Source of the DNA: a virus
Length of the DNA stretch: 64,000 nucleotides
Strand: one strand, 5' to 3'
Virus record (IMG/VR): IMGVR_UViG_3300005532_000007
Coordinates: 1-64,000 of that record
Shown: positions 26,694-44,069 of the stretch, piece by piece
Numbering within the stretch: position 1 is the first letter of the stretch
How the letters are laid out: each line of letters starts with the position of its first letter
Notes under the pieces: generated by a model
Told to the model about the DNA's origin: nothing
Database searches by the model: none
What the model saw: the letters and a program-made list of their open reading frames with translations, nothing else
Translations under genes and position numbers: made by a program

Positions 26694-26929
26694 TGTTCGC
26701 GCTCGATCCTGCTCGGGCCGATCCGCTGGAACGTGACGACCAGATCGCGATGCCGCCGCGGCTCCAGCGGGCCGCGCACCACGAGCTTCGTGCCGTCGTC
26801 CGCCACCGACTCCACAAACGCCACATGCGACTGGCCGTCACCGGCCTGCACGTGCATCAGATCCCCTAGCCGCGGCGGCACATGCCCGCACGCGGTCTGG
26901 ACTGGCCGGTCGATCACAAGAGTGTCCAT
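26690..26929 (-). CDS. Hypothetical protein
   Basis: Coupled ORF in the leftward block. Confidence 0.6.
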   Translation of the reverse strand: MDTLVIDRPVQTACGHVPPRLGDLMHVQAGDGQSHVAFVESVADDGTKLVVRGPLEPRRHRDLVVTFQRIGPSRIEREQ

Positions 26930-28882: not shown

Positions 28883-29677
28883 GTGAGCAGGAGCATGTAT
28901 GACGGCGTGGACGCCTCGAGGCTGCCCGCCGGCGCGCAGCTCGTCGCCGGCTACGTCGACGGCCTCTACGCGTGGTCCGACGCGGACTGGGCGAGGTTCC
29001 CGAACTCGGTGAAGGTCCGCATCGCCTGCTTCGCCGACACCGACGACGGCGAGGTCCTGGACGTCGAACCCGGCAACGCCACCCCGGCCGAATCAGTGGA
29101 CTGGGTTCTGATGCGGCGGCGCGCCGGAGCGGACCCGACCGTGTACATGAACACGTCCACCTGGCCCACCGTGCGTTCCGCGTTCGCCGCGCGGAACGTG
29201 GCCGAACCGCACTACTGGGTCGCGCAGTACGACGGCGTCGCCACGCTGCCCGCCGGGGCGCACGCCAAGCAGTACTACAACAACGACCAGGCCGGATACG
29301 ACCTGTCCGTGGTCGCGGACTACTGGCCCGGCATCGACCGCGCACCCGCCGGGGGCGCCGCTGTGAACCTGACCCCCGCGGACACGCGCAGGAGGAACGA
29401 CATGCACGTCGACCTGAAGCCGAACACCCCCGTGGTGTTCACCAACCCGGCCGCCGCGCTCGGCGGCACCTCCACGCTGCTGCTCGCCTCCGACTTCGGC
29501 GACGCGACCGTGCGGGTGGCCACGTTCAGTTTCAAGACCGCGAGTTGGACGGTCGTGAACCACGTGATCGGCAGCAAGGGCGGCGCGTTCAGCATGCCGA
29601 TGCCGCCGGATACCAACAAGGTCAGTGTGGTGTTGCAGACCGATGGTGTGCCCGTCGGCCTGGACGTGCTGGCCTGA
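28883..29677 (+). CDS. Endolysin, GH25-like muramidase
   Basis: MYD, AGYVDG, LDVEPG, PTVY, YWVAQY, AKQY, YDLSVV; upstream of a holin-like gene. Confidence 0.75.
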   Translation: MSRSMYDGVDASRLPAGAQLVAGYVDGLYAWSDADWARFPNSVKVRIACFADTDDGEVLDVEPGNATPAESVDWVLMRRRAGADPTVYMNTSTWPTVRSAFAARNVAEPHYWVAQYDGVATLPAGAHAKQYYNNDQAGYDLSVVADYWPGIDRAPAGGAAVNLTPADTRRRNDMHVDLKPNTPVVFTNPAAALGGTSTLLLASDFGDATVRVATFSFKTASWTVVNHVIGSKGGAFSMPMPPDTNKVSVVLQTDGVPVGLDVLA

Positions 29678-29678
29678 C

Positions 29679-29987
29679 ATGGCCACCGTCGCGGGAGACA
29701 GCCGCGGCCCGGTGCGCCAAGCGATCGACCAGGAAGCAGCGCACTACCACCCGTGGGCGCAACTGGCCTGGTTCCTCACCTTATTCACGGGTGCGCTGAT
29801 CATGCAGCTGTTCGGCGGTGCACACGTGGCCGGGTGGGCGGATCTGCGTTCCCTTTTAGTGAGCTGCGCCGGGATCGCGTGGAAGCAGTGGCGCAAGACC
29901 CTACCGGTGAAAACTGCGCAGCGCGTCGCGACAGAACACGAACAGGCCTGCGCCGGGCGTGATCCAGCAAACCCAGCAACACCGTAA
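29679..29987 (+). CDS. Putative holin
   Basis: Two hydrophobic segments and a basic C-terminal region; follows the endolysin. Confidence 0.6.
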   Translation: MATVAGDSRGPVRQAIDQEAAHYHPWAQLAWFLTLFTGALIMQLFGGAHVAGWADLRSLLVSCAGIAWKQWRKTLPVKTAQRVATEHEQACAGRDPANPATP

Positions 29988-29997
29988 AAGGAGCCCG

Positions 29998-30213
29998 GTG
30001 AATGGCGACCCGCCGCGCAACCTCACTCTGGCCGAACTGTGGCGGATGCTTCAAGCCCTCACCGAACGCCTCCAGAAAGCCGAGGACGCGATCGAAGAAC
30101 TGGAGAAACGCGGCCGCTGGACGCGCGCCGAGGTCATGCAGTTCGTATCGGTGGCGATCGCGGCGCTGGTAGTGGTGTGGAGCGTGTACACGGCGACGAA
30201 GGGTGCGAAGTGA
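29998..30213 (+). CDS. Coiled-coil protein with C-terminal TM (lysis cassette)
   Basis: AAGGAG RBS; coiled coil followed by one TM. Confidence 0.65.
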
Positions 30214-31076
30214 GCGGGCCGGGTCTGACGCGTAGTCGGCGGCGCTGGCGCGCGGCTGGTGTGGTGCTGCTGGTGGTGGTCGCCGGGTACGCGGTGTGGG
30301 GTATCCGGCAGTTGCAGGAGGCGAACGCGTCGCGGGACCGGGCGATCAGTGCTCTGTCGGTGCAGGTGGAGGCCTACCGGTCGCAGGCGGCTCAGCATGG
30401 GTTGCCGACGGGGCCGCCTCCGGTGCAGATCGTGCAGGGCGCGACGGGCGCGGCGGGTCCGCAGGGCGTGGCGGGGGCGCCGGGGATGCCGGGAGCCGCG
30501 GGCAGTCCTGGGCCGCGTGGCGAAACCGGTCCGGCCGGCAGTCCAGGTCCGGTCGGGCCAAGCGGCCCCGCTGGCGCTGCCGGTCCAGCCGGACCGGCCG
30601 GTGCGCAAGGCGAACCCGGGCCGGTGGGACCTCAAGGCGAGCCGGGCCCCGCTGGCCCGAGCGGCCCACCGGGGCCTGCCTGCCCGGACGGGTACAGCCA
30701 GCAACCGGAGAAGATCAACGGGCATGAGGCGCTGGTGTGCGAGGTGACACCGTCGCCGTCGCCCACCGGATCAGCCAGCGCTTCCGCGTCGCCGCCGTCC
30801 GCGTCTCCGACTCCTGTGCTGTCGACACCGGCACCGTCGGCCCAGCGCCGCGCGGCCGCACAACCGAGCCCGGCAGCCGTGATGGCGCGCAGTGCGCGCG
30901 TGGACATGGCCCCGGCCGCCGACGTGACGCCCACTTGCCCTGCCCCGGGTGCGCCGTCGCCGTCCACGCCGTCAGGTCCCGGGCCGCTCGCGCCGCTGAG
31001 CCTGTCGGATCCCGCGGCCCGGGTGCGGCGGATCGTGCCGGGGCCGGGTCAGCCGGTGTGGCCCACGGCGGCGTAG
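30210..31076 (+). CDS. Membrane-anchored collagen-like protein
   Basis: N-terminal TM, (Gly-X-Y)n tract, CPDGY..LVC motif as in actinophage lysis cassettes. Confidence 0.8.
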
Positions 31077-31579
31077 GCCAGGCCGTTCTTCGCGGCACGG
31101 CCTTCGTTCATCAGCTGCACGAGGGTCGCGCCGAGCAGGGTGCCGGTGATGCCAGTGTCTCTGGCGATGGTTTTGGAGTCGCTGGCGCCGTGGGCGCGCA
31201 GGTAGGCGAGGATCACTTGGTCGGGGCTCAGGTCGGCCTCGTCCTCGGCGTCGGCTTCGGCAGGCTCGTCGGCGGTGGCCGGTCCGGGCAGGCTGGTGAC
31301 GAAGCCCTCGTCCTGCGGGGTCGTGACGTGCTCCAGGAGCGTCTGCTCGTCGTAGACCGTGCCCAGCAGGGTGTGCGCGGCGCCGGCGCTGCTGGTCATG
31401 CCGAGGGCGGCCGCGAGCCGCTGGACGTCGACCGGCCCGTCTACGGAGAGCACGACGTACGGGGTGCCGTCGACTTTGAGGAAGCCCTGGATTTTGGTGA
31501 GGGTCGCCATTTCGCGCTTGTGTTGCGCGGTCGGCGCGGCCGGGGCCTGTTCGGTCTCAGCCGTCGGGGTGGTGGTCAC
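31049..31579 (-). CDS. Hypothetical protein with C-terminal winged HTH
   Basis: [28 protein letters not shown]. Confidence 0.7.
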
Positions 31580-31607
31580 GGTGGCTCCCGGCGGTATCGG
31601 TGGGACG

Positions 31608-31644
31608 AAAAACGGCCCCGGCCACGTGGGGCGGCCGGGGCCGT
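31608..31644 (-). terminator. Intrinsic terminator
   Basis: 11-bp GC stem followed by TTTTT on the minus strand. Confidence 0.65.
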
Positions 31645-31833
31645 GTGCGCGAGGCGAAGTTGCTGTGGGATCCGGGTCCGCAATGGCCCCGCGTCGCGCC
31701 TGTTGAGGATATCGCGTGCGGCGTGGGCGAGCCCCGTACGCCGGGGGGAAGGACGTGACGGGGCTCGCGATCCGGATCCAGGACCCACGGTAGCGGGCAC
31801 AGCGCCGCCAGATGGAGCAGTTGAGCGCGGCGC

Positions 31834-32664
31834 CTACAGATACTGCCCAGTACCCCGCTCGGCGTCAGGCTCCGGTTCCCGGGAACCGACGCCCCACGCC
31901 GGGGCGAGCAGTGCCGCCGTGGCCGGGTCGTTGCCCAGCGCGGCGCGGGCCTCCGGACCCAGCTGCAGCAGCTCGCGTAGCGACGCGCCGATCGCCGGGC
32001 CGGTCCAGCGGGCCCCGGCCTGCTGCGCGTATGGGTCGTAGCCCAGGGCCATCGCGGTCTGCGCGCGCAGTGCCTCGCGCTGGGTGCGGGCGTTCTCTTT
32101 GATCCGGGTGCGTTCGATCGCGGCGTCGGCCCGCACTTGTTCGACAGTGATCGTGGTCGCGGCCTCGATCTGTTTGTGGCTCAAATCGGCGGCCCGCTGT
32201 GCCCGGCGTTCGGCGTCGCCGCGGCCGAGCAGGTGCCGCACGGATCCGGCGACCACGGCGGCGACCACGGCCCAGCCGACACGCAGCCACGGGTTGGTGG
32301 TGTACGCGCCGATCCCGAATTCGACGGCGCCGGCGGTCACGCCGAGGCAGGTGGCGGCGAGCCCCGGGTGGCGGCGCACCAGCACACCGCAGGCGCAGCT
32401 GGCGCCGGCAACCAGTCCCGCGATCACGGCGTCGCCTGCTGAGTGCGCGGCTCCGCCGGCGGATGCGCTGAAGGATGCCGCGAGGATGGCGGCGGGAGCG
32501 ATCGAGGGTGGCCCGGCGGCGCGCAGGGCACGCCACAGCCAGCCGCCTGCGGGTTGAGCCGCGCCCTGAGCAACTGGATAGGTTCCGTCGTGATGCTGGT
32601 ACGAGCTCGGCGCCCACGGTGCCTCGTACGGCGCGGGCAGCCGGCTGCCAGGGGTGTGGTTCAT
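31834..32664 (-). CDS. Multi-TM membrane protein with coiled coil (Spd-like)
   Basis: About four hydrophobic segments; translationally coupled to the TraB-like gene. Confidence 0.65.
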   Translation of the reverse strand: MNHTPGSRLPAPYEAPWAPSSYQHHDGTYPVAQGAAQPAGGWLWRALRAAGPPSIAPAAILAASFSASAGGAAHSAGDAVIAGLVAGASCACGVLVRRHPGLAATCLGVTAGAVEFGIGAYTTNPWLRVGWAVVAAVVAGSVRHLLGRGDAERRAQRAADLSHKQIEAATTITVEQVRADAAIERTRIKENARTQREALRAQTAMALGYDPYAQQAGARWTGPAIGASLRELLQLGPEARAALGNDPATAALLAPAWGVGSREPEPDAERGTGQYL

Positions 32665-34727
32665 GCTGCTGCTCCGTCCAGGACAGTGGCGCCGTTTCGC
32701 TGCGCGGCCGGGGCGAGGTATTTCGCCAGGGTCCAGCGGCCGGTGCCGGGTTCCTGGACGGCGCCGTTGCGCTGTAGGGCGTTTATCACGGCCGTGTCGG
32801 TGGCGCCGACCGCGGCGGCGATGTCGCATACGCGTTGCGGGTCGCCGGTGAACTCGAGGAACTGCTCCACGCGCGGCCAGGTCTCGCCGCGGGCCGGCTT
32901 GGTCTTCACGGTGATCGGCGTTGCCGATGCGTTTGCCGCAGGGGCGGCGTGCTCCGGTGCTGGTTGCGGTGCCGCGGCGCGGGTGTTCGCGGCGACCAGC
33001 GCGGGGTCGCGCAGCTGCCGGGCGAACAGTTCGCGCAGCGCGGCCGCCTGCTCGACGTGCGCCGAGCGGCCCGTGGCCAGCCAGCGGGCATCGGACTGCA
33101 CGAAACGGATCGGCTGCCCGACCTCATCGCCGCCCGACGCCCGATAACCCAGGCCGCCGGTCGGCGAGCCGTCCGCGAAATGCGCCTGCAGTCCGCGCGG
33201 ATCCACCCCGGCCACGCCGGGCGCCATGTTCAGCTTCGTCGCCAGACTCCCGCCACGCAGCAGGAACTTGTCCCCGGACACCAGGGCGTCGCGCAGCGTG
33301 TGGCTCGTGAGCACGTCCTCCGCGACCGAGATCGACAGGACGGTCAGGCGCACTGCCGCCTTACGGCCGCCCTCGGCGAGCTCCTCCAGCAGCCCGAGGA
33401 TCTTCTTGTCGCGGCGCATCAGCGTCGGGACCTCGTCGATGTACCCGGACACCAGCGGCCGCTCAAAGGTGGGCCGGATCAGGTCGATGCCCTCGGCGGC
33501 CATCTGCCCGACCCGGGTGCGCAGCACCTGCACCATCGCCTCGAGGCTCAGGCGGATCTGCACGTACAGGTCCTCGATCGGCAGCGGGCGCGCGAACAGG
33601 TCGAGCTTGTCCAGCCACCCGGCGTAGGAGGCGCCGGCGTGCGGGTCGAGCACCCACGGCGCCACCACGGGACGCCCGTGCTCGTCCGTGGTGTGCATGT
33701 CCAGGGTCAGCAGGGTGCGCGCGAGCTGGCTCTTGCCCGAGCCGGTCGAGCCGACGGCGACACGGTGTGGTGAGCCGAATCCGTCGATCCACACCCGGTA
33801 GGGCTGGTATTCGCCGGTGACGGTGCGGGCTAGCTGCGGGTGGGTGAACGAACCGGGCTGCGCGACGCGCTCGAGGCGGGCGGTGGCCTGCAGCGGGTTG
33901 CGTTCGAACACGTACAGGCGGGCGGTGCCGTCCGGGCGTGGCTGCGCGATGACGTTCGCCGGGTGGATCGCGGCGCGGCCGTCGCCGACGCCGGTGTACG
34001 CCTGCGCGATCAGATCGGTGTGCTCGATCAGCATCGCGGGCCGCTGCCGCACGGGCCCCTTGCCGAGGTTGAAGCGCACGGTGGCGGCGAACGCGAACCC
34101 GCCGGTGTCACTGAGCCGCTCGATCTGGTCGAGGGCGGTGCGGGGGAACTGGCCGCCCTCGCAGGCGAAACCCTCCTCCCACACATCCGCGATCAGGCGG
34201 GTGAACGCGTCGCGCGGATCGGCTGGGTCTTGCTGCTCGCCAGCAGACGGCTGGGTTTCGGCCGCGGCCGGGGCTGCGGGCGCTGCGGGCACGAGGCGGC
34301 GCAGCCACCAGGCGAGCGACAGCGGCGCGGTCAGCGTCCCGAACAGGATCAGCATGCTCTCGTGCAGCGGAGAGACCGCGCTGGCGCACGCGAGATACGT
34401 GATGGAGGAGGACGCGAGCGCGGCCTGATAGAGGCGGTGCGCGTTGGCCAGCGGGCGGCCGTTGCGTTTGCGCCACAGCCGGTGCGCGGCGTGCCCGCCG
34501 AGCGCCGCCGCCGTGGCGGCGCCCAAACCGAGCGCGTCGGTGACCCCGGTGACGCGGTGTGCTTCGCATCCGGCGGCGAACAGCACAGCCGCGCCGGTGA
34601 CGGGCGCGTAGGCGGCGCGGTGACGCCAGTAGTGGCGTGCGGCCTTCCCGGGCGCGGTGTCGGCGAACTTCACCGGCGCTGCGGCCGGTGCCGGCAGCAC
34701 GGGAAGGTTCTGGCTCGGGCGGCCCAT
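32661..34727 (-). CDS. TraB-like FtsK/SpoIIIE-family DNA translocase
   Basis: N-terminal TM segments, Walker A GSTGSGKS, Walker B YIDE, GRKAAV motif, GLGY, C-terminal winged helix. Confidence 0.82.
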   Translation of the reverse strand: MGRPSQNLPVLPAPAAAPVKFADTAPGKAARHYWRHRAAYAPVTGAAVLFAAGCEAHRVTGVTDALGLGAATAAALGGHAAHRLWRKRNGRPLANAHRLYQAALASSSITYLACASAVSPLHESMLILFGTLTAPLSLAWWLRRLVPAAPAAPAAAETQPSAGEQQDPADPRDAFTRLIADVWEEGFACEGGQFPRTALDQIERLSDTGGFAFAATVRFNLGKGPVRQRPAMLIEHTDLIAQAYTGVGDGRAAIHPANVIAQPRPDGTARLYVFERNPLQATARLERVAQPGSFTHPQLARTVTGEYQPYRVWIDGFGSPHRVAVGSTGSGKSQLARTLLTLDMHTTDEHGRPVVAPWVLDPHAGASYAGWLDKLDLFARPLPIEDLYVQIRLSLEAMVQVLRTRVGQMAAEGIDLIRPTFERPLVSGYIDEVPTLMRRDKKILGLLEELAEGGRKAAVRLTVLSISVAEDVLTSHTLRDALVSGDKFLLRGGSLATKLNMAPGVAGVDPRGLQAHFADGSPTGGLGYRASGGDEVGQPIRFVQSDARWLATGRSAHVEQAAALRELFARQLRDPALVAANTRAAAPQPAPEHAAPAANASATPITVKTKPARGETWPRVEQFLEFTGDPQRVCDIAAAVGATDTAVINALQRNGAVQEPGTGRWTLAKYLAPAAQRNGATVLDGAAA

Positions 34728-34771
34728 GATCCTGGCTCCTTCTAGTGGTGCGGTCGGTCGGATGCGGATGG

Positions 34772-36001
34772 TTAGGCCAGCAGGAAGTCGTGGTCAGCCG
34801 AGCCGTGCCCGACGCGCGCCGTCTCGTCGCGGAACCCGCCCTGGTGGTTGGCGAGCGTCGCGCGCACCTGCCCGGCGACCTGCGCTGCGTTCTCCGCGTC
34901 ACCCTGCACGCCCGGCATGAGCGCAGCCAGGGACGCTTCCATCTGCGCGATCTGGTCGCTCAGTTGCGCGGCCTGCGCGGCCTTGGCGGCCATCGCCTGG
35001 TAGACCTGCACGCTGTCGGCCATGGCGCCGACGGAGGCCTGGTCCACGCCGCGTTCGGCGGCGTTCTGGGTGCTGGCGGCCCACGCCGCGGCGGCCTGCC
35101 GGGCGGACGCGGCCAGCGCGTCGAGTGCCTGCGCGCGGGCGCCGGCGGAGGCGGCGCGGTTGGTGGCGATCGCGGCGTGCTGCCCGGCCTGACCGCTGAT
35201 CTGGGTGGCGGCCTCGGCGCTACCGGAGGCGGCGGTCATGACTTGGCTGTAGGTCTCGGCAGCGGCGGGGGCGAGTTCATTGGCCATGGTTGTTCCGATC
35301 TGTGCGATGGGGATGTTCGTGGTGGGGATGCCGCGCGGTGCGCGCGGGAAAATGCCGTCGATAGTCGGGTCGTGAACAACCTCGGCGTCGGCGACATCCG
35401 CGGGTTCGGCGCGAGCCGTGGGGGCATCGGCAGCGTCGTCGACGATCTCGCCGTCCGCCGTGTCGCCGTCCTTCCAGTCGGCGGCGCGCGGCGGGGCACC
35501 TCCCGCCGGGCCGGGACCCGGCCGGGAGCCACCGAACCGGCGTCCGGCTCGATCGAACGGGCCGCGCGGCCACGATCCGGTAAAGCCGCCGCGGGTGCGG
35601 TCACCGGCCGGGCCGCTCGCCGCGTCAGGCTCGTCGCCGCTACTCGTCGGCCGTGTGCCTTCGCGCGGGGCGCCCGGTTCGCGAGCGGGCCCGCCCAGGG
35701 CGCCGCGTGCGGCGCGCTTGGCCAGGTGCCAGCCGTCCACACCGGCCGCCCAACCGAACCCGGCGCCCAGCGCCAGGGCCCAGCCGATGCCCCGCGCGCC
35801 GAGATCCGCGAGCACCGATCCGGCGCCCGGGCCGCCCGGTTGCGCGGGGAACGCGTGGCGCAGCGCAGCGGCGATGCGCTGCGCTGACGCGGGCACCCGC
35901 TCGCTGAGCATCTCCCGCCCGTGCCGGACGACGGCGACCAACGACCAGATGATCACCGCGCCGAGTAGCACGCCCCACGCCTGCGCCGCATTGGTCACCA
36001 T
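34772..36001 (-). CDS. Transfer accessory protein (TraA-like position), N-terminal TM plus Ala-rich helical domain
   Basis: Immediately upstream of the TraB-like gene; ends H..F..(A)DHDFL. Confidence 0.55.
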   Translation of the reverse strand: MVTNAAQAWGVLLGAVIIWSLVAVVRHGREMLSERVPASAQRIAAALRHAFPAQPGGPGAGSVLADLGARGIGWALALGAGFGWAAGVDGWHLAKRAARGALGGPAREPGAPREGTRPTSSGDEPDAASGPAGDRTRGGFTGSWPRGPFDRAGRRFGGSRPGPGPAGGAPPRAADWKDGDTADGEIVDDAADAPTARAEPADVADAEVVHDPTIDGIFPRAPRGIPTTNIPIAQIGTTMANELAPAAAETYSQVMTAASGSAEAATQISGQAGQHAAIATNRAASAGARAQALDALAASARQAAAAWAASTQNAAERGVDQASVGAMADSVQVYQAMAAKAAQAAQLSDQIAQMEASLAALMPGVQGDAENAAQVAGQVRATLANHQGGFRDETARVGHGSADHDFLLA

Positions 36002-36008
36002 CGCTGGC

Positions 36009-36635
36009 TCACCCGAGCCCGAACCAAGAGCCGACCAGATGCCCGATCTCCGCCGCGAGCGCGGCGAACGGCACCGCAGCCATCGCTCCGGCCGGTCCGG
36101 GCAGCGTGACGGTCAGCGGGCCGACGCCGATCGCGCCGTACTTCTCGAAGCGGTGCTCGATCCACTGCCAGGACTTGCCGCCGGAGCGGCCCGCGGCGGC
36201 GCCTGGCCCGGCGGTGATGGCCGCGGGCCCGCTGCCGGCGCCGGTCCGCGAGCGGGCGGCCCGACGGCCTTGGACCGCGTCCCACAGGTGCAGGGCCGCC
36301 CACAGCAGCAGCGGGATCTCGATCAACGTCAGGATGCCGACGCTCGAGGGCCAGTTCGACGTGAGCTGCGTGGCGCGCGCCGCGTCGCGCAGCAGGCCCG
36401 CGGACCAGGTGTTGATGCCCTGCAGCAGGCGCGCGCCGGGAGACGCGAACAGGATCGTCGCGCCGGCCGCCATGAGGATCTTGGCGAGCAGGTCGAGGAT
36501 GCGGTGGCGGTGGGCGAGCTTGTGGTGCGCGAACCACGCGATCGCCAGGGTGATAGCGCCGACCGCCGCGGAGACGGCGGCGGTTCCGGCGGACAGTGCG
36601 AGGGTGGCGCTCTGCGCGAGCGCTTGCGGGTGCAT
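36009..36635 (-). CDS. Membrane protein (Spd-like)
   Basis: Multiple TM segments. Confidence 0.65.
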   Translation of the reverse strand: MHPQALAQSATLALSAGTAAVSAAVGAITLAIAWFAHHKLAHRHRILDLLAKILMAAGATILFASPGARLLQGINTWSAGLLRDAARATQLTSNWPSSVGILTLIEIPLLLWAALHLWDAVQGRRAARSRTGAGSGPAAITAGPGAAAGRSGGKSWQWIEHRFEKYGAIGVGPLTVTLPGPAGAMAAVPFAALAAEIGHLVGSWFGLG

Positions 36636-36757
36636 CAGGGGGCTCCGTTTCCGTTTTGACGTGAGTGGATCAGTGCTCTAATCTCGCGCGCGCGGGCGCG
36701 CGCCCGCGTGTAGGACCCGTTTTCGGGCCCGGGGCGGGTGTGAGCGGGGTTGTGAGT

Positions 36758-37087
36758 TCACGTGCCGTACCTCGCGATCACGGCGTCGAGTGCCTTGGTG
36801 GCGGCGGTCAGTGCCCGCTCGTTGTCCAGGGCGCGCACCTGGTCGGCGGCGACTTCGAACAGGGCGCGGGGGCTGTTGGCGGCGCGGTGGCGGCGGTCGG
36901 CGTAGAACGCGGCTCGGCGTGCGGCGCGGCGTTCGGATTTGCGCGGCCGGGCGCCCGCGGTGGGCGCCGGCTCGTCGTGGGTCGTCGAAGAGCGGCTCGC
37001 CGGGGTGGGCGACTCGACGCGTTGCGCGTCGGGTGATTCGCCGAGCCACTGCAACGCCCGCCGCGCCGCGGGTTTACGCGCCGTCAT
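36758..37087 (-). CDS. Hypothetical protein
   Basis: Coupled to the DUF2637 gene; AGGAG RBS. Confidence 0.55.
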   Translation of the reverse strand: MTARKPAARRALQWLGESPDAQRVESPTPASRSSTTHDEPAPTAGARPRKSERRAARRAAFYADRRHRAANSPRALFEVAADQVRALDNERALTAATKALDAVIARYGT

Positions 37088-38226
37088 GAGGCACGCTCCT
37101 GCGGGGTGTCATCCGCGTTGCCGCGGCCGCCGCTCTTGCTGCGTCGGCTGCGTGTCACGCGCACGTAGACCTTGTCAACGGTGACACCCCGTGCGGCGAG
37201 TAGCGCTACGGCGTGTGAGGCGACACGCCCGGGTAGCAGGTCGTCGAGCCGCCGCACGGCTTCGGCCTGTGTCATCTCGTGCCACGCCGGGGGCCCGGCG
37301 GCGTCGAGGACGCGCAGGTCGGCTTCGAGATCGGCGTGCGGCAGGGGTGTCGCTGCGCCCGCGGTCAGGGGCGTCACGGTGGGGCGTGTCGCGCGGGGAC
37401 GGCGGGGTGTCGCGGGAGTGTCGGTGCTACGTGCAGGGCGCGCCGGGGTATCGGCGCCTGCCGTCTCGCCCGTGGCGGTGGGCGTGTCAGTCGCAGGGGT
37501 ATCGCCGCTACGCGTCGCGGCGACCGCGGCGGGGGTGTCGCTTTCGCCGAGGGCGATGGAGAGACGTGTCGCGGCCGATACGTGCCAGCGCCAGGCGCGG
37601 CCGTGTGTATCGCGCAGCGCGGCGATGCGGCCGAGACGTACACGTTCCATCGCGAGGGCGGTGCTGTAGGAGTTCTGGTGCCACAGGATCATGCGCCGCC
37701 ACAGCTTCAGGGTCGGCCACGGCGAAAGCAGCCAGCGCGCCGCCGGGATCGGCTCGCGCAGGCTGCCGCCGTGCCGCAGCGCGGTGCGCCGCACGACGTG
37801 CCGCATGAGTTCGACGAACATCACCCACACGCTGGGCATCAGGACGTGCGCGACGCGGCCGGTGAGGTCTCCGCCGGCGGCGTAGTTGAGCCACACGGTC
37901 CCGAAGGTGGCGCCGTACACGGTCCAGCGCGCGAGCGGGTGGCTCATGCCGAGCCGGTTGAGGACGAGGTCGACGCCGGAGAACACCAGGACGGTCAGGT
38001 CGACGACGAGCGGGACAAGCCACGCCCAGCGGGGCCCGAAGCTGGGGGTCATACGCACGGAGACGGCGTGGAAGGACAGGGCCATGCCGGCGACGGCGAT
38101 GAGGGCGGCGAGGACGCCGATGACGACGGTGACGGTGAGCCAGCCGGGGCCGAGCGGTTCGGGCGTGGGGTCCGGGCCGTTGGGGTCGCGCTGGGTGGTC
38201 ATGGTCGCCTCGCTGGTGGTGGTCAT
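37084..38226 (-). CDS. DUF2637 / SpdA-like membrane protein
   Basis: ALSF, AWLVPLVVD, TVWLN, HVLMP, IPAARWLLSPWPTLKLWRRMILW motifs. Confidence 0.8.
   Translation of the reverse strand: MTTTSEATMTTQRDPNGPDPTPEPLGPGWLTVTVVIGVLAALIAVAGMALSFHAVSVRMTPSFGPRWAWLVPLVVDLTVLVFSGVDLVLNRLGMSHPLARWTVYGATFGTVWLNYAAGGDLTGRVAHVLMPSVWVMFVELMRHVVRRTALRHGGSLREPIPAARWLLSPWPTLKLWRRMILWHQNSYSTALAMERVRLGRIAALRDTHGRAWRWHVSAATRLSIALGESDTPAAVAATRSGDTPATDTPTATGETAGADTPARPARSTDTPATPRRPRATRPTVTPLTAGAATPLPHADLEADLRVLDAAGPPAWHEMTQAEAVRRLDDLLPGRVASHAVALLAARGVTVDKVYVRVTRSRRSKSGGRGNADDTPQERAS
37103..37570. repeat. Cluster of GG(G/C/A)GT(G/A)TC 8-mers, candidate clt/TraB recognition sequences
   Basis: Copies at about 37103, 37344, 37383, 37404, 37415, 37445, 37481, 37496, 37532 (variants 37149, 37368, 37563; inverted 37183, 37222). 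Confidence 0.6.
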
Positions 38227-38318
38227 CGGTCTCGCCTCCTTCGGAACTGGGGGTCAGATGGCGCGGTAGCGGTCGGTTTGCCCGGGCCAGGGGATGCCGT
38301 CCAGGGCGCGGGTCAGGG

Positions 38319-39065
38319 CTAGTGGTGCGGCGACCGGGAAGCGGCGGCCTCGATCACGTCCAGGTCGGCGCCGGACACCTGCGCGAGCCCGGCATGGACG
38401 AGCCACAGCACCCACACCGGTTCGATCCCGGGCGTGTCGGCGCTGCCGTGGGCGTAGGCGACGGTACGGGTGACCAGGTCGGTGATCTGGGTGGCGGTGA
38501 GCCAGCGGGCGTTGCGGGTTTCGCGCGCGCTGGGGCTCAGCTGCCCAGTGGCGCTGGCGGTGTACACGCTCCAGTGGTGGCCGATGCCTGCGGGCCCGGC
38601 GGGGCGGCGGCAGACGTTGGGGCGCCATCCTCCGGTCACGAGGGTGAGCGGTCCGACGGTAAGGCCGGTTTCCTCGGCGGCTTCTGCTGCGGCGCCCTGT
38701 TCGGGGGTGCCGTGGGTGTCGATGTGTCCGGCGGCGGGGGCGGTGCCGGGGGGCGGGGTGTTGCGGTCGAACATGAGCCAGGTGCCGGTTTCGGGGTTGT
38801 GGATGAGGATCCCGACGCTGGTGTTGTCGCAGTGCGGGGTGATCGCGAGGATGCGGGCGGCGTCGAGGACGCGGGTGTGGCTGGGGCCGTGGGGGGTGAG
38901 GCGTGCGGGGATGAGTAGGTGGAGTCCGGGCGTGGGGTTGGTGGTCAGTTCGCGTAGGGCGTCGAGTTCGTCGGGTGTGACGCTGGCTGTGAGGGTTTGG
39001 GGATGGGGGTTGTCGGTTTGGTAGGTGATGTCGGCGGTGAGGGTGGCGGTCATGGTGGGGGTCAT
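38319..39065 (-). CDS. Nudix hydrolase
   Basis: APAAGHID..PEQGAAAEAAEETGL Nudix box; CDNTSVGILI, NVCRR, GHHWSVY. Confidence 0.85.
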   Translation of the reverse strand: MTPTMTATLTADITYQTDNPHPQTLTASVTPDELDALRELTTNPTPGLHLLIPARLTPHGPSHTRVLDAARILAITPHCDNTSVGILIHNPETGTWLMFDRNTPPPGTAPAAGHIDTHGTPEQGAAAEAAEETGLTVGPLTLVTGGWRPNVCRRPAGPAGIGHHWSVYTASATGQLSPSARETRNARWLTATQITDLVTRTVAYAHGSADTPGIEPVWVLWLVHAGLAQVSGADLDVIEAAASRSPHH

Positions 39066-39158
39066 GGTGGGGGTCTCGTTTTCGTTGCGGTCGGGGCTGG
39101 CTCTCCGCCGGGGCACGTCCGGGGCACGTCCCGCGTGGGGGCGTGCCCTGGCGGAGGG

Positions 39159-39614
39159 TCAGAGCGTCGGGTAGTGCGGGACGGGTTCGGTCAGGTAGCC
39201 GGGCAGGTCCGGGTCGCCGAGCGGGATGGTGGCGATGACCGTGTGCCAGTCGCCGCGCGTGGTCTCGGTCAGTGAACTGGCCAGGACGGCGATGATGAGC
39301 AGGCCGCGGCCGTGTTCGTCGGTTTCGTAGGGGTCTTCGTTGTCGGCGGGAGTTTTGCCGGGCCGGTCGGTGACGGTGAGGGTGAGCAGGTCGCCGGGCA
39401 GGTGTGCAGTAATGGCGAGCGGGGGTAGGGCGTGGGTGAGGGCGTTGGTGAAGAGTTCGGAGAGGACGAGGACGGCACCGTCGGCGGTGTCGCCTTGGTA
39501 GCCGCGGCGGGTCAGATAGTCCGACAGCCAGGTGCGGGCGTGGGCGACGGTGGTTTTGTTCGGGTGGGCATAGGTGACGGCGTGGGTTGCCTGCTCGATC
39601 GTCGCGGCGGTCAT
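39159..39614 (-). CDS. ATP-binding protein (HATPase_c-like, anti-sigma-factor type)
   Basis: LVLSELFTNALTHA, VTD, DEHGRGLLII motifs. Confidence 0.88.
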   Translation of the reverse strand: MTAATIEQATHAVTYAHPNKTTVAHARTWLSDYLTRRGYQGDTADGAVLVLSELFTNALTHALPPLAITAHLPGDLLTLTVTDRPGKTPADNEDPYETDEHGRGLLIIAVLASSLTETTRGDWHTVIATIPLGDPDLPGYLTEPVPHYPTL

Positions 39615-39658
39615 CGGTCCACTCCCGTGTGCTGCTGTGCGGCGCGCGTTGGTGTGTG

Positions 39659-39937
39659 TCACGCGGCACCGTCCAGGTGCGGCAGGTGGTCGAGGGCGTC
39701 GAGGGCGCTGACGGCCTGCTGGTCGTGTTCGGGGGTGTCGTTGAGGGCTTGGGTGGCCCATGCGGCGGCGGCGCGCCAGATGTCGGCGAGTACGTCCGTG
39801 GGGCGGCGGCCGGCGGCGAGTTGGTCGAGGCCGATTTCGACGGCGTCGTCCATGGCTTCGAGCTGTTCGAGGATCGCGCCGCGCGGCGCGGTCGAGGTGT
39901 GCCGGTGGCCGGTGGGGAATTCCAGCACGACGCTCAC
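39659..39937 (-). CDS. Hypothetical protein
   Basis: Coupled ORF. Confidence 0.6.
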   Translation of the reverse strand: MSVVLEFPTGHRHTSTAPRGAILEQLEAMDDAVEIGLDQLAAGRRPTDVLADIWRAAAAWATQALNDTPEHDQQAVSALDALDHLPHLDGAA

Positions 39938-40275
39938 GAGGCCACCTGCCCGCTGTTCGCCGCGTCGGCGGCGGTGTCCCACAGATCGAGCAGCGTGTCG
40001 CGCACGGTGCCGCGGGCGTTTTCGTGCAGGGCGAGCGCGGTCATGAGCGCCGTGGTGGCCTGCTCGACGAGCTCGTGGGTGTCGGTGGGCTGGCCGTTCA
40101 CAGACGGCGGGTCGATGCGCGGGGTGCCGGCGGTGACCCCACCCAGGTCGCTGAACTTCTCGATCTCGAGGGCGGCCTCGGACGCCATGAACTCGGCATA
40201 CTTGGCCGCAGTCGTGCCGGCCGGGACCTCGAACGTGACGGGCAGGTGCAGGACGGTGCGGGCAGTGTCGCTCAT
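39934..40275 (-). CDS. Hypothetical protein
   Basis: Coupled ORF (MSDTARTVLHLPV). Confidence 0.6.
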   Translation of the reverse strand: MSDTARTVLHLPVTFEVPAGTTAAKYAEFMASEAALEIEKFSDLGGVTAGTPRIDPPSVNGQPTDTHELVEQATTALMTALALHENARGTVRDTLLDLWDTAADAANSGQVAS

Positions 40276-40640
40276 CAGGCGCCCGCGGTTTCCGCGGTAC
40301 CCGCGAGGGCCTGCAGCTCGTAGTAGCGGGCGAGGTCCAGGTCGCCGTGCAGCAGCGCGTCGGTGGCCAGCAGCGCCATCGCCATCGGCTTGATCTGGTC
40401 CGGCTCCAGGGACATCCCGAACCCGGCCATGACGGTGAGCTGGGTGTTGCCCTTGTGCCGCTGCAGGGAGAAGACGGCCTCGGTCACGGCGTCTTCGTGG
40501 GGTCCGCGGTCGCCGAAGTTCAGGCGGATCGGGGTGTTGTAGCAGGAGCCGGCACCGGGTTCGTCGGGGTCCTCGTAGTGCTCGGCGGGGCTGCACCACG
40601 CGGCGTGGTTGTCGGCCGGCTGGGGTACGGTGGTGGTCAT
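40275..40640 (-). CDS. Hypothetical protein (H..WC...H motif common in AICE small genes)
   Basis: HAAWCSPAEH..C; AGAGGA RBS. Confidence 0.65.
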   Translation of the reverse strand: MTTTVPQPADNHAAWCSPAEHYEDPDEPGAGSCYNTPIRLNFGDRGPHEDAVTEAVFSLQRHKGNTQLTVMAGFGMSLEPDQIKPMAMALLATDALLHGDLDLARYYELQALAGTAETAGA

Positions 40641-40789
40641 TGATCCGGTTCCTCTCGCGTGGTGGCGGATCGCGGGCCCGGCGGTGAAGGCGTCACCGCC
40701 GGGCTTCGGCCTGCTCGGGGATGGTGCTGGTCGGACTGGGCGCCCAGCGGCCGTGCGTGGAGGGGGCGGCCGCCGGGCTTCCGGCCCGG

Positions 40790-40984
40790 TCAGGACGTGC
40801 TGATCTCATTGCGCACGGCGTTATAGACCAGGTCCATGTCGCCGTCGTTCAGGTCGATGCCGTTGTCGGCGCAGTAGTCCTCGATCCACTGGGTGATCGA
40901 GGCGCCGTCGGGGTGGGGACCGTGCTCGTCAAGCAGCCCGGGGGTGACCTGCTTGGCGAGGTCGGCGGCTTCGATGGCGTCCAT
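40790..40984 (-). CDS. Small acidic hypothetical protein
   Basis: AGGAAGGA RBS. Confidence 0.6.
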   Translation of the reverse strand: MDAIEAADLAKQVTPGLLDEHGPHPDGASITQWIEDYCADNGIDLNDGDMDLVYNAVRNEISTS

Positions 40985-41070
40985 CGGTTCGGGTTCCTTC
41001 CTGCTGGCTGGTGCGGGGTGGCTGCCGCCCGCGGCTGGAGTGCGGCCAGGCCGCGGGCGGCGGCTCGGGG

Positions 41071-41241
41071 TTACCGCGGGACGCCGTCGGGCCAGATCAG
41101 CGCGGTCAGGCGCGCCGAGTCCTGCGCTTGGTCTGGGGAGGGCTCTCCTGCCGCGTTGGTGTGGTTGTTGAGCCGGTTGCGCAGGGACTCGGCTTGGGTT
41201 TCGAGCGTGACGCGTTCTGCGGGGGTCAGGGGTCTGGGCAT
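41071..41241 (-). CDS. Small hypothetical protein (56 aa, not in the ORF track)
   Basis: AAGGAG RBS; MPRPLTPAERVTLE..LIWPDGVPR*. Confidence 0.55.
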   Translation of the reverse strand: MPRPLTPAERVTLETQAESLRNRLNNHTNAAGEPSPDQAQDSARLTALIWPDGVPR

Positions 41242-41286
41242 GTCGGTCTCCTTGTTTGGCCGGTTTCGGGCGGCGCTCGTGGGCGG

Positions 41287-41499
41287 CTAAGCCGCAGCGG
41301 GGGTGGCGCCAATCGCGTTGCGAGCCATGTACGCCTCGACGGATGAGCGGGTTACGCGGATGCGGGTCTTAGTCGGCCCGACGCGAAACGCCTCGAACTC
41401 CCCTGCCGCGATCTCCCGCAGGATCGTCGCCTTACTCACGCCGACGATGCCGGCGACCTGCGCGGGCGTCAGCTTGTCGGTGCCCTCGGTGGTCTGCAT
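41287..41499 (-). CDS. xis: Excisionase-family HTH protein
   Basis: LTPAQVAGIVGVSKATILREI..G..AFRVG..IRV....VEAYM. Confidence 0.85.
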   Translation of the reverse strand: MQTTEGTDKLTPAQVAGIVGVSKATILREIAAGEFEAFRVGPTKTRIRVTRSSVEAYMARNAIGATPAAA

Positions 41500-41542
41500 C
41501 GGTCGGCTCCTAGCTGGTGCGTTACTTCCAACGCCTCAACCG

Positions 41543-41575
41543 TAGCGCTATGGTGCTATGGCGTCAATGACGCTA
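41543..41575. promoter_or_regulatory. Operator: tandem TAGCGCTA-like 8-mers upstream of xis
   Basis: TAGCGCTA TGGTGCTA TGGCGTCA a TGACGCTA. Confidence 0.65.
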
Positions 41576-41588
41576 GGCTGAATCAGGC

Positions 41589-41617
41589 AAAGAAAAAGCC
41601 CCGGAGTCAGCCGGGGC
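41589..41617 (-). terminator. Intrinsic terminator of the GntR gene
   Basis: gccccgg/ccggggc stem followed by TTTTTCTTT on the minus strand. Confidence 0.75.
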
Positions 41618-41633
41618 CGCTGGCGAGGAGGTG

Positions 41634-42371
41634 TCAGGCGTCGTGAACCGGAAGGTCATACTCCAGCTCGTAGCGCTCGGCACTGAACACGATGTCCAGC
41701 GCCTCAACCGGATGCCCATCGTCAGTCCACGTCACGCGCAGGGTGCGCAGAACCGGGACACCCGACGGAATCCGCAGTGTCTCCACCTCGAACGAAGTGG
41801 GCATTCTGCCCGTCACCCATTCGCGACAGGCCCGCGGCGGGTAGCCCAGCCGCTTCAGCACCGTGGGCGTCGCACCCTTGAGCTTCGCTCTGAAGGCGAG
41901 TGGCGTGTCGAATGCGACGTCCAACGGGAAGTACGAGGTCGCGATCTCCAGCGGATCACCGTTCGCGTTGCGCATGACGCGCCGCCGCATCACGACCTGC
42001 TCGTCGGGTTCGACCTCCAGCTTCAAAGCCACTTCATCAGGAGGCGTCACGACATCAACCTCTGGCGGGTCAGAGCGGCCGTGTGGCGGTTTGGTGCCTT
42101 CGGCGACCGGCGATACGAAGTCTGCCGATCGGCTGATCTCGCGCTTCACCTGCCGCACGTAGACACCCTTGCCAGGCGCGGATTCCACCAGGCCGGCCGC
42201 CTTGAGTGCGCGCACCGCCTTCTGGACCGTCGTGGCCGCCACATGATGCTGAGCGGCCAACGCCGTCACCGAGGGGATCGCGGCGCCTGGTGGGATCTCG
42301 CCGTTCTCGATCTTCTTCCGAAGATCCGTCACGATCCGGATGTACGCCGGTTCGCCACTCCACTCGGTCAT
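41634..42371 (-). CDS. GntR/HutC-family repressor (KorSA-like, wHTH + UTRA)
   Basis: PAYIRI..LR.KI..G..PGAAIPS..TVQKAV..L...GLV....GKGVYV plus C-terminal UTRA domain. Confidence 0.92.
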   Translation of the reverse strand: MTEWSGEPAYIRIVTDLRKKIENGEIPPGAAIPSVTALAAQHHVAATTVQKAVRALKAAGLVESAPGKGVYVRQVKREISRSADFVSPVAEGTKPPHGRSDPPEVDVVTPPDEVALKLEVEPDEQVVMRRRVMRNANGDPLEIATSYFPLDVAFDTPLAFRAKLKGATPTVLKRLGYPPRACREWVTGRMPTSFEVETLRIPSGVPVLRTLRVTWTDDGHPVEALDIVFSAERYELEYDLPVHDA

Positions 42372-42398
42372 GGGCGGCCTCACTCCCTGTCGGCGTCT

Positions 42399-42438
42399 AA
42401 GCGCTACAGCACCAAAGATGCTCTAGCGCTATACGCTA
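42399..42438. promoter_or_regulatory. Operator: TAGCGCTA-like 8-mers upstream of the GntR gene
   Basis: AAGCGCTA CAGCACCA ... TAGCGCTA TACGCTA, same motif as at 41543. Confidence 0.65.
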
Positions 42439-42512
42439 CACAGTGTGTAGGGCGTCCCGTCAATGCGACCCGATATCCGCTACCTGCGGCTTTCGTGGCA
42501 ACGACAGAGCAA

Positions 42513-43286: not shown

Positions 43287-44069
43287 GTGAGCCACGAAGC
43301 CATCGACTGGGCCATCAAGCAGGACGCACGCGGCAACGCCCCCCGGAAGCTGATCCTCATCCTCCTCGCCAACCGCGCCGACGACGCATGGGTCTGCTGG
43401 CCAAGCAACCGCCTGATCGCCGAGGAGTCCGGGCTGAGCATCCGACAAGTCGTCCGACACATCGCATCACTCGAACAGGACGGCCTGATCCGGCGCGTGC
43501 CCTGGGAACGGGCAGATGGCGGCCAAGGCGCGAACGTCTTCGCGCTCGGCCCAACAGCCACCGATGCCCCCGTGTCATGTACGACACGGGGAGGGGGTCA
43601 TGTACGACATGGGGGGTGGGTCACTGATGACACCCCCCGGGTGTCATACACGACACCCCTAGAACCCAAAGAAGAAACCACAAAGAACCCTCACTCATCC
43701 GGCCCGCGCGAAGAATCGCGGGGCCGCTCGCTCGCTGACGCGAACGAGACGCACACGCCGCACCAGCCAACCGAACGCGAACTCTGGCAAGCGATCCGCG
43801 CCACCGCGCTCCACAACCCCGACACCTACCAACGGCAAATCGACACCATCCGCGCCCGCGCACCCCGGCTCTGGCGAGACGCCACAGACGCCGCGTTCAC
43901 GCAGTTCCGAGAGAACGACTCTCCCCACCAGCACGACCCCGCGCAGGTCGCATTGCTCGCCTACCAGTACGTGATCCAGATGCGGGCACCGGATTGGCCG
44001 GCGTGGCTGCTCGGTCCGCTGCTGCCGATGCTCGCCACAACCCAAACCGACACCACCCGCGCCGCATGA
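43287..44069 (+). CDS. Phage replication initiator (N-terminal HTH, lambda-O-like layout)
   Basis: MSHEAIDWA..KLILILLANRAD....CWPS...IA.ESGLS.RQV.R.I..LE..GLI.R; internal iterons. Confidence 0.85.
   Translation: MSHEAIDWAIKQDARGNAPRKLILILLANRADDAWVCWPSNRLIAEESGLSIRQVVRHIASLEQDGLIRRVPWERADGGQGANVFALGPTATDAPVSCTTRGGGHVRHGGWVTDDTPRVSYTTPLEPKEETTKNPHSSGPREESRGRSLADANETHTPHQPTERELWQAIRATALHNPDTYQRQIDTIRARAPRLWRDATDAAFTQFRENDSPHQHDPAQVALLAYQYVIQMRAPDWPAWLLGPLLPMLATTQTDTTRAA
43568..43658. repeat. Four iterons GTCA-N5-GACA (replication origin)
   Basis: gtgtcatgtacgacac, gggtcatgtacgacat, gggtcactgatgacac, gtgtcatacacgacac followed by an A-rich tract. Confidence 0.8.

Follow-up and report, generated by a model that had tools for sequence, protein, structure and literature searches.

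Record IMGVR_UViG_3300005532_000007 of IMG/VR is a single-contig virus record of 88,172 bp recovered from a soil metagenome, and its first 64 kb (64,000 nucleotides) form the window analysed here. Between 31.0 and 42.4 kb, this window contains a block of about 11 kb made of co-directional minus-strand open reading frames (ORFs; genes were called by third-position GC) with high third-position GC and, for most of them, Shine-Dalgarno-like upstream sequences. We favour, with moderate confidence, the interpretation that this block is a DNA-transfer or DNA-spreading module of plasmid origin, conserved within a lineage and integral to a temperate tailed phage which has an integrase and infects a mycelial actinomycete. 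Such a module would allow a transfer of the phage genome independent of virions, as far as we infer from sequence. An earlier note on this DNA had rightly described the co-directional block and had proposed a hybrid between a phage and a conjugative element. This hybrid reading is the best one, with a function deduced from the genes, once it is corrected for the integrase and the att-like end of the element, for its integration status and for the nature of the locus, which appears as a conserved slot instead of a pSAM2-type insertion.

The predicted pump and its plasmid relatives

One piece of evidence is a gene at 32661-34727 (minus strand) encoding a TraB-like double-stranded DNA translocase of 688 amino acids (aa), hereafter the pump, with a Walker A motif (GSTGSGKS) at residue 326 and a Walker B motif (YIDE) at residue 429. 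Searches of Pfam, PHROG and NCBIfam assigned the pump to no family beyond P-loop-sized matches. An exhaustive search among 1.84 billion proteins retrieved 133 representative relatives (E <= 1e-3), mostly of 600-750 aa, and 60 of these were aligned. PF01580 is matched by 40 of the 60 aligned relatives (E <= 0.01), MarR_2 by 14 and FtsK_gamma by two, and the residues invariant in the 60 members, including those of Walker A and Walker B, are intact in the pump. The profile built on this family matches EssC (1.4e-21) and FtsK motor domains (2.6e-16) and also EccC, HerA and the coupling protein TcpA of pCW3, and its positions 580-636 (the C-terminal 60) match winged-helix proteins. The AlphaFold model obtained from the family alignment (pLDDT 85.1) begins with four helices, continues with a mixed alpha/beta region and ends in a domain of three helices, the helices that form the C-terminal winged helix being located at residues 616-677 with a pLDDT of about 90. 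With Foldseek, the best matches of this model are FtsK motor domains (E 1.2e-12, TM-score by target 0.63-0.66, about 430-448 columns), followed by EccC and TcpA. Profile and model together identify the pump as a motor of the FtsK type ending in a winged helix, an arrangement shared with Streptomyces TraB, which is described as joining an FtsK-like motor to a membrane anchor and to a winged helix recognising 8-bp repeats (PMC3583192, citing Vogelmann et al., 2011). At the N-terminus of the pump, a single segment exceeds a hydropathy of 1.5, and the membrane anchor is only moderately supported. Public phage records contain neither the block nor the pump (megablast of 31000-42500; tblastn of the pump against 50,697 records at E 1e-5). 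Moreover, neither the pump alone nor a five-sequence alignment retrieved a relative in viral or genome contigs, and the same queries found only a 1,057-bp fragment in metagenome contigs.

It is among plasmids that homologous modules are found. Indeed, a tblastn search with the pump returned 20 plasmid records (18 from Streptomyces and two from Kitasatospora) with 26-30% identity, and in NZ_CP106800.1 and NZ_CP108729.1 the genes follow the same order, from a DUF2637 gene through a gene of about 340-430 aa to a pump of 688 or 708 aa. In NZ_CP106800.1, a divergent GntR gene precedes small genes, the DUF2637 gene, further small genes and genes of 428, 241 and 688 aa, the last one, annotated "hypothetical protein", being the pump homologue; in NZ_CP108729.1 the core is arranged likewise, with no GntR gene annotated nearby. 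Three genes of the block were connected to these two plasmids by local tblastn: the pump (1.4e-24 and 5.3e-23), the DUF2637 gene at 37084-38226 (1e-16 and 2.6e-18; 30-37% identity to the plasmid genes) and the gene at 41634-42383 (1.9e-24; 30% identity to the plasmid GntR), which encodes a GntR/HutC-type regulator with a UTRA domain (E 3.3e-16 for GntR and 2.5e-20 for UTRA), KorSA/TraR-like by family. The GntR-UTRA and DUF2637 assignments of the earlier note are hence sound. On sequence grounds, we regard the GntR, DUF2637 and pump genes as homologous to, and ordered as in, modules carried by Streptomyces linear plasmids, and the block as a member of a family of plasmid modules not yet characterised.

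The DUF2637 gene (minus strand) deserves particular attention. Its product is an SpdB-like membrane protein that includes a linker of low complexity and ends in a helical domain, and its DUF2637 domain is clearly recognised by PF10935 (E 5.5e-21; 75.6 bits against a cut-off of 22.8, and 78.7 bits in a second search) and by phrog_29003 (1.6e-23). In the nearest atlas cluster (score 0.92), PF27079 HTH_SpdB_C is present in 56% of the members, which is a lead only, and the protein itself has no HTH_SpdB_C match in the Pfam copy used. Inside this gene, at 37103-37539, there is an array of about 10-12 copies of the 8-mer GG(G/C/A)G(T/C)(G/A)TC, GACACCCC-like on the gene strand. The word GG(G/C/A)GT(G/A)TC has 34 copies in the 88 kb, both strands considered, 11 of which are within 37101-37600, and GGGGTGTC with one mismatch has 12 copies in the array region for 0.8 expected. 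The ten plus-strand copies of the array occupy two codon phases (six and four copies), which speaks for a constraint at the DNA rather than at the peptide level. In an unbiased scan for local 8-mer enrichment, the 3' half of the DUF2637 gene ranks 5th of the 305 scan windows of the genome; the matching half of the DUF2637-like gene is placed 2nd among 465 scan windows in the phage relative G001 presented below, with CGGCAAC(A/G), and first among 64 in NZ_CP108729.1, a plasmid where GCGGACAA occurs 28 times, in both orientations, for 0.8 expected. A module-specific 8-mer array is thereby present at the same place in three of the five modules. We consider the array at 37103-37539 as a candidate clt, that is a putative loading site of the pump. 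TraA of plasmid pWTY27 is described as binding TGACACC repeats in its clt (PMC3583192), and this word resembles the GACACC core of the array.

A slot shared with phage relatives

A terminase search of IMG/VR led to four close relatives (76-81% identity), two of which are complete with terminal repeats, G001 (109,516 bp) and G002 (115,995 bp). When the 116 predicted proteins of the element were compared by tblastn with these two genomes, the virion module proved common and in order, with 40-86% identity, and none of the 11 core ORFs of the block (31834-41241) gave a match at 1e-5. Taken alone, this last result looks like an insertion of the block; family searches change the picture. Indeed, ORFs matching PF01580 are present in G002 (71694-74147, 7.4e-12) and G001 (90446-93160, 6.8e-7), each directly after a DUF2637-like ORF, the DUF2637 matches being sub-threshold (E 3.6e-5 and 1.4e-4). 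Aligned by hhalign to the TraB-like family, the ATPases of the relatives gave probabilities of 99.2% (E 1.6e-19) and 98.8% (E 4.4e-17), and for the ATPase of G001 the alignment extends through the C-terminal winged helix. In G001, the genes are arranged as GntR (26%), HTH_17 (51%), a relative of the small ORF at 40275-40640 (35%), DUF2637-like, pump, a relative of the gene at 31049-31579 (36%) and the distal end of the virion module; G002 has GntR (31%), DUF2637-like, pump and again a relative of the gene at 31049-31579 (40%). The flanking genes are homologous and, seen from the virion module, follow one another in the same order and orientation. An analogous transfer-type module is hence located in the same slot in all three complete genomes of this sub-lineage, and the search for related phages suggested by the earlier note found, in both complete relatives, an analogous GntR-DUF2637-like-TraB-like module in the same orientation. 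Both G001 and G002 also possess an integrase of the tyrosine type.

Since both relatives keep a module of their own at the same place, the slot appears conserved and the cassette swapped, in contrast to what a chance insertion of an actinomycete integrative and conjugative element (AICE) would give. In line with this, the pump resembles those of plasmids (27% over 525 aa, E 1.4e-24) considerably more than those found in G001 and G002 (24% over 130 aa, E 0.025), which argues for an exchange of the cassette within the conserved slot, probably in situ with versions carried by plasmids or AICEs. Relatives of the pump with 81-84% identity are found on contigs of 8,465, 47,923 and 129,561 bp, and no contig of these three sizes is seen among the best 120 of the 426 capsid relatives or among the relatives of the gene at 31049-31579, so that this type of cassette probably resides on other backbones too. 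For the gene at 31049-31579 itself, an 80% relative is on a contig of 44,066 bp, and an 87% capsid relative is on a contig of equal size. As a separate observation, genes of the TnpB/OrfB_IS605 type flank the transfer module of G002 (G002 68536-69786 and 77982-79361) and represent a possible route for rearranging this variable region.

The earlier note had reported no att sites flanking the block and had named direct repeats or an empty site as possible marks of an independent insertion. Around the block, direct repeats amount to low-identity, chance-like pairs, and an att-bounded insertion was rejected for want of convincing flanking repeats. Block-less joined forms were not seen in the public runs examined, the candidate joints all having sides of 20-26 letters and being treated as noise. 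In the source run, single contigs span both junctions of the block (29401-38441, and 39049 to beyond 47000). [quoted passage not shown]

Conservation of the slot leaves room for a role of the module within one mycelium, in the infection cycle itself: the pump would move replicating phage DNA across cross-walls, as a kind of "movement protein", or resolve and segregate concatemers. Indeed, 92 phage records, 91 of them from Streptomyces phages and many of them large and lytic, contain matches to the pump of G002 under the annotation FtsK-like DNA translocase, and in passages of two sources the authors guess, in passing, a role in replication (PMC11536984; bioRxiv 10.1101/2024.02.16.580700). In the cultured Streptomyces phages Gilgamesh, NootNoot, Paradiddles and others, the FtsK-like genes are 30% (Gilgamesh) and 25-26% (the ~131-kb phages listed) identical to the pump of G002, but they do not match the pump of the present genome at E 1e-5. 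DUF2637-like genes are present in Gilgamesh and VWB, the one of Gilgamesh being far from the FtsK-like gene (7 kb and 76 kb). On plasmids, DUF2637/SpdB-type proteins act in intramycelial spread, which counts in favour of a role inside the mycelium, as does the presence in the window of a separate protein with an FtsK_gamma domain. This protein (46824-47450, 208 aa) carries the KOPS-reading winged-helix domain of FtsK gamma (E 1.7e-14); over 63 aa, it shares 63% identity with the end of a gene annotated "DNA translocase FtsK 4TM" on plasmid NZ_CP108729.1 and has a 54% relative in G001. Nevertheless, the block does not contain a lone FtsK-like gene but combines GntR, Nudix-like, SpdB-like and pump genes with an array, that is a plasmid/AICE transfer set, and the element is temperate, with an integrase. 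We thus regard an exclusive role in the infection cycle as unlikely, keeping in mind that it overlaps in mechanism with conjugation and differs only in the recipient.

A second alternative is that the block is a plasmid or AICE cassette which recombined into a variable region of the phage, where it would be selfish cargo, or decaying, and of no service to the phage. The closeness of the pump to plasmid genes fits this view, as do the contigs of the 81-84% relatives, unmatched among the capsid relatives considered, and the GC content of the block (0.721), to be compared with 0.702 in the virion arm and 0.67-0.69 in the right arm. This difference is however small, and the sequence is nearly unchanged in the independent study. 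Furthermore, both complete relatives keep an analogous module with the same orientation in the same slot, between homologous flanking genes; no flanking repeats were found, and family searches of all block ORFs identified neither an integrase nor a Rep family, which upholds the earlier claim that no rolling-circle replication protein is encoded there. Finally, all ORFs are intact and open, the catalytic residues are present and the operon is bounded by terminators. A mere passenger is hence distinctly improbable, and a transfer module belonging to the phage lineage accounts better for these features.

Gene content of the block and of the phage genome

The genes of the block are all on the minus strand, and transcription runs from the GntR gene (42383) toward 31049. 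Fifty-three bp upstream of the GntR start lies the palindrome CTACACAGTGTGTAG (42436-42450, 7+1+7), a candidate operator, weakly supported by itself: it is the sole site in the window at <=3 mismatches, and at least two matches were obtained in 9 of 100 shuffles. As no second site is present in the window, no regulon could be drawn. A terminator-like hairpin (41597-41618, minus strand) lies directly 3' of the GntR gene, which looks monocistronic with its own terminator, and the GntR protein may act as a master repressor, as was proposed earlier. A scan for sigma-70 promoters found none, which is uninformative in a high-GC actinomycete. The following gene (41287-41499, minus strand) encodes a 70-aa HTH_17 protein with a DNA-binding domain of the excisionase/AlpA type (PF12728, 2.2e-10) and is 51% identical to G001 80612-80845, which likewise comes after a GntR gene. 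The earlier note had named it Xis; the domain stands, and the excisionase identity is a domain call only, for a gene situated 45 kb from the integrase. Two small acidic ORFs of 64 and 56 aa and of no family (40790-41241, minus strand) are followed, between the regulatory and the transfer parts, by two GC-rich hairpins (40675-40781), a possible internal terminator or attenuator, and then by two small ORFs (39934-40260 and 40275-40640, minus strand), the second with its 35% relative at the matching position in G001.

Next comes, at 39159-39761 (minus strand), an anti-sigma serine kinase of the RsbW/SpoIIAB type (HATPase_c_2; PF13581, 7.5e-11; NF041045, 6.2e-9), whose true start is probably internal to the ORF. 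Other parts of a partner-switching system are scattered over the genome, namely two STAS proteins and a PP2C phosphatase (window 45147-45908 and record 63471-64193 and 64356-65132, besides the kinase), a set which suggests a manipulation of the sigma-factor pathway of the host. The ORF at 38319-39116 (minus strand), of uncertain start codon, encodes a Nudix-like protein with a degenerate box. Its best NCBIfam match (NF041652, E 1.8e-4) reaches 21.8 bits for a cut-off of 200. Compared with the Nudix box formula, the 23-residue box is in register, with G instead of the first conserved E and A instead of the conserved R. The Nudix hydrolase of the earlier note is therefore retained for its box in register, and weakened by a sub-threshold match and by the replacement of two conserved positions.

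A third alternative is an exclusion or defence device, in which a membrane ATPase and its partners would block plasmids, AICEs and phages using the same route or abort infection. The points in its favour are that the Nudix protein Pif of pSAM2 is described as an immunity factor (PMC2440964), that the block encodes an anti-sigma kinase, with STAS and PP2C genes elsewhere in the genome, and that HerA/FtsK-type ATPases occur in defence systems, HerA-Sir2 being among the profile matches; this explanation is nonetheless very improbable, as FtsK motor domains fit the pump best over both its alpha and beta domains and HerA defence ATPases less well, as no nuclease or Sir2 partner was identified on the block ORFs in general family searches (no defence-specific search was made) and as the synteny is with plasmid tra-type loci.

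The part of the block assigned to transfer contains, in addition to the DUF2637 and pump genes, a basic protein of 109 aa with no family assigned (36758-37087), a polytopic membrane protein of 208 aa with hydrophobic segments and no family match (36009-36635) and a protein of 409 aa (34772-36001), all on the minus strand. The latter has an N-terminal membrane helix, an Ala-rich helical C-terminal half and a weak match to DUF7427 (E 0.001), with no named relative in the atlas. Downstream of the pump, a membrane protein of about 277 aa (31834-32667, minus strand), Spd-like by position, has hydrophobic segments at residues 77-99 and 130-148, a likely start overlapping the pump stop and no family match. 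Hydrophobic segments are thus present in four ORFs of the block (31834-32667, 34772-36001, 36009-36635 and 37084-38226), in agreement with the several membrane proteins announced earlier. The operon ends at a strong terminator-like hairpin with a 14-bp stem and a T run (31612-31644, minus strand). Beyond it, a separate transcription unit (31049-31579, minus strand) encodes a winged-helix, MarR-like protein of 176 aa (phrog_1687, 1.8e-5), the gene whose position is kept in the relatives (40% identical to G002 84112-84705 and 36% to G001 102063-102674).

On its left side, the block faces the virion module (0.2-31.1 kb, plus strand), with terminase, portal, HK97-type capsid and tail genes, so that the genome surrounding it does encode a virion, as had been claimed; the terminase shares 44% identity with its counterparts in cultured Streptomyces phages. 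The last gene of this module, convergent with the block, encodes a collagen-repeat tail fibre (30039-31076, plus strand; Pfam Collagen, 5.2e-14; PHROG tail-fibre families). The placement of the block between lysis and replication genes is not confirmed: its left neighbour is this tail fibre and a lysis gene could not be recognised, the only trace being a CHAP fragment (26690-26929) below threshold; its right neighbour, divergently placed, is a 260-aa HTH_36 protein (43287-44069, plus strand) with a replication-initiator-like N-terminal winged helix (PF13730, 1.1e-13; weak RP-C match). Within the virion module, the 1020-aa gene at 9093-12155 contains an internal tandem duplication (9972-10376; 213 bp, 77% identical). 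Outside of this genome, plasmid NZ_CP036456.1 of Streptomonospora litoralis (89,998 bp) carries a terminase, annotated as hypothetical protein, that is 40% identical to the one of the element, and this plasmid may be another actinomycete phage-plasmid.

The right arm (43-88 kb) comprises the HTH_36 protein, the STAS proteins, the FtsK_gamma-domain protein, HTH_31/DUF5753 and DUF6879 proteins, the PP2C phosphatase, two DNA methylases, a DnaC-like loader, RusA, DUF5131, an RNase_T-type exonuclease, ERF, YqaJ and the integrase. It is there that 8-mers cluster most densely in the genome, trivial clusters aside: at record 71173-72246, GTGACTCA has 11 copies for 0.14 expected, within a gene of 357 aa immediately upstream of that for the DnaC-like loader. 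This cluster looks like an iteron-type replication origin within an initiator gene, as in lambda O.

The integrase (PF00589, tyrosine type) is at record 86496-87935, outside the window; 117 bp separate it from the right copy of the terminal repeat of the record, a perfect direct repeat of 120 bp (record 1-120 and 88053-88172). The absence of an integrase, as stated earlier, is correct for the block ORFs and for the window and does not apply to the element as a whole. Three bases in, the terminal repeat opens with a tRNA-like CCA end, acceptor strand and T-arm in reverse complement; neither ARAGORN nor Rfam detected a complete tRNA or tmRNA in the 120 bp, and the tRNA-like part covers only about 29 nucleotides. 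The repeat may be an att core, a genuine terminal repeat or a (k-mer) overlap from the assembly. In the first case, the core would have been exposed by a branch in the assembly graph; the terminal repeats of the two relatives, of 99 and 127 bp, have the size of typical assembler overlaps. Altogether, the element appears as a temperate-type phage genome with an att-like end and is known as a metagenome contig, not as an integrated prophage. The term prophage used by the earlier note goes beyond a record that is a metagenome contig with terminal repeats.

Comparison with known systems and possible mechanism

The closest precedent is the Streptomyces plasmid-phage pZL12/phiZL12 (Zhong et al., 2010), of about 90 kb, which is described as carrying genes for phage particles and whose conjugal transfer needs a major tra gene together with two genes adjoining it (PMC3583192, PMC4487206, PMC7157519). 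A tailed phage with a plasmid-type transfer function has thus already an experimental precedent. The element resembles plasmid-phages of this type (pZL12, pSLE1) in that a single replicon unites virion genes with a predicted tra gene of plasmid type. In contrast, pZL12 is described as being kept as a plasmid by ParA and ParB, whereas the element and its two relatives have tyrosine integrases; ParA (PF13614) and ParB (PF02195) were found in none of these three genomes, the controls being positive in 14 of 14 and 10 of 14 genomes, respectively. pZL12 was not among the matches listed for the terminase and pump searches, its presence in the phage collection searched being unconfirmed, and in the literature searched we found no description of an AICE-like phage hybrid beyond pZL12.

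With the plasmid loci of Streptomyces (TraB/SpdB2 of pSVH1, tra/korA of pIJ101, traA-clt of pWTY27), the element shares a GntR-type repressor and a DUF2637/Spd membrane protein, and its pump has the motor and the C-terminal winged helix of the plasmid pumps, which are described as membrane-anchored FtsK-like hexamers reading 8-bp clt repeats by this winged helix (PMC3583192). Unlike these loci, its module is inside a virion-encoding genome, its pump belongs to a divergent subfamily (26-30% identical, below the Pfam threshold), its GntR gene is co-directional with its own terminator, whereas the one of NZ_CP106800.1 is divergent, and its candidate clt is inside the DUF2637 gene and not at the 3' end of the pump gene.

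There is a likeness to AICEs as well. Their usual set is described as an integrase with attP, a GntR or XRE regulator, an excisionase, a transfer protein, a Nudix hydrolase and a replication protein (PMC2440964), and the element as a whole possesses the larger part of it. As in pSAM2, SLP1 or pMEA300, the element has a tyrosine integrase adjoining an att-like site with a tRNA-like end, together with an excisionase-type HTH_17 gene, a GntR gene of the KorSA family, a Nudix-like gene, an FtsK-like transfer gene and Spd-like membrane proteins. AICEs measure 9-24 kb and have no virion module, in contrast to the 88 kb and the full virion module of the element. Moreover, family searches of the block ORFs gave no RepSA, RepAM or prim-pol protein (of the 88 kb, not all ORFs were covered), the replication genes are of phage type, with the iteron-bearing gene and the DnaC-like loader, the Xis-like gene is 45 kb away from the integrase and the Nudix box is degenerate. 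A pSAM2-type AICE is consequently not the right description, given that the block has no RepSA-like gene, a pump of a divergent subfamily and a degenerate Nudix box.

If the block is a transfer module of the phage, one can propose the following sequence of events. The GntR protein would keep the leftward operon silent until a ligand or the induction of the prophage relieves it. Through the integrase, perhaps helped by the HTH_17 protein, and through the iteron-type origin with the DnaC-like loader, the genome would become a replicating double-stranded circle. The pump, as a membrane-anchored hexamer, would then bind the 8-mer array in the DUF2637 gene by its winged helix and drive the double-stranded genome, unprocessed, into an adjacent hypha or through cross-walls, after which the DUF2637 protein and the small membrane proteins would carry the DNA onward through the mycelium. 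A limit on redundant transfer may be set by the Nudix-like protein, in the manner of Pif in pSAM2. Virions and contact-dependent transfer would then give the phage two routes of spread.

Several observations weigh against a transfer module of this kind and moderate our confidence. The pump is below the threshold of Pfam FtsK_SpoIIIE (PF01580), with 15 bits for a cut-off of 24. Its helices at residues 41-145 are only mildly hydrophobic (mean Kyte-Doolittle from -0.06 to 0.87); of the translocase with transmembrane, ATPase and winged-helix parts that the earlier note had described, it is hence the FtsK-type motor and the C-terminal winged helix that are confirmed, and the transmembrane part that is less assured. 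Cultured Streptomyces phages, most of them lytic, frequently have FtsK-like genes, so that conjugation need not be the role of the pump. Plasmid homologues are detectable for only three of the about 16 genes of the block (none at E <= 0.01 for the others). Regarding the array, the equivalent scan window is unremarkable in two of the five modules, G002 (rank 18 of 468) and NZ_CP106800.1 (rank 21 of 64, the top 8-mer window of this plasmid overlapping the end of the DUF2637 gene); the array lies in a low-complexity, Thr/Pro-rich coding stretch, its motif was defined after being seen, and it could be the target of the C-terminal domain of the DUF2637 protein itself. Conservation in the lineage rests on two complete relatives, and among five more distant ones (terminase 42-45% identical) none has PF01580 or DUF2637. 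Two of these five match the pump profile only in its winged-helix part; one of these two ORFs is phage DNA primase/helicase-like, aligned by hhalign only at the C-terminal winged helix, and is no pump. Finally, integration is putative for an element recorded as a metagenome contig.

A broader hypothesis, which we advance tentatively and to which we give less credit than to the transfer module itself, is that of a clade of temperate actinophages that would be "AICEs with a capsid". In these phages, a fixed slot would host a TraB/SpdB module swapped with plasmids and AICEs, the DUF2637 gene would carry an 8-mer array specific to the pump, spread would follow two routes and the pump-clt pairs would diversify like alleles of specificity or incompatibility. 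In comparison with the pZL12 precedent, what is new is that a slot is conserved in a lineage while its cassette is exchanged, and that module-specific 8-mer arrays are present inside the DUF2637 genes of a phage, of a relative and of a plasmid.

Should the module work, a tailed phage of a mycelial actinomycete would possess a second means of moving, without a capsid, and the line between prophages, AICEs and conjugative plasmids would be blurred. Such a property would provide a function for the numerous genes annotated as "FtsK-like DNA translocase" in actinophages, and it would change the models of host range, superinfection and gene flow in soil Streptomyces.

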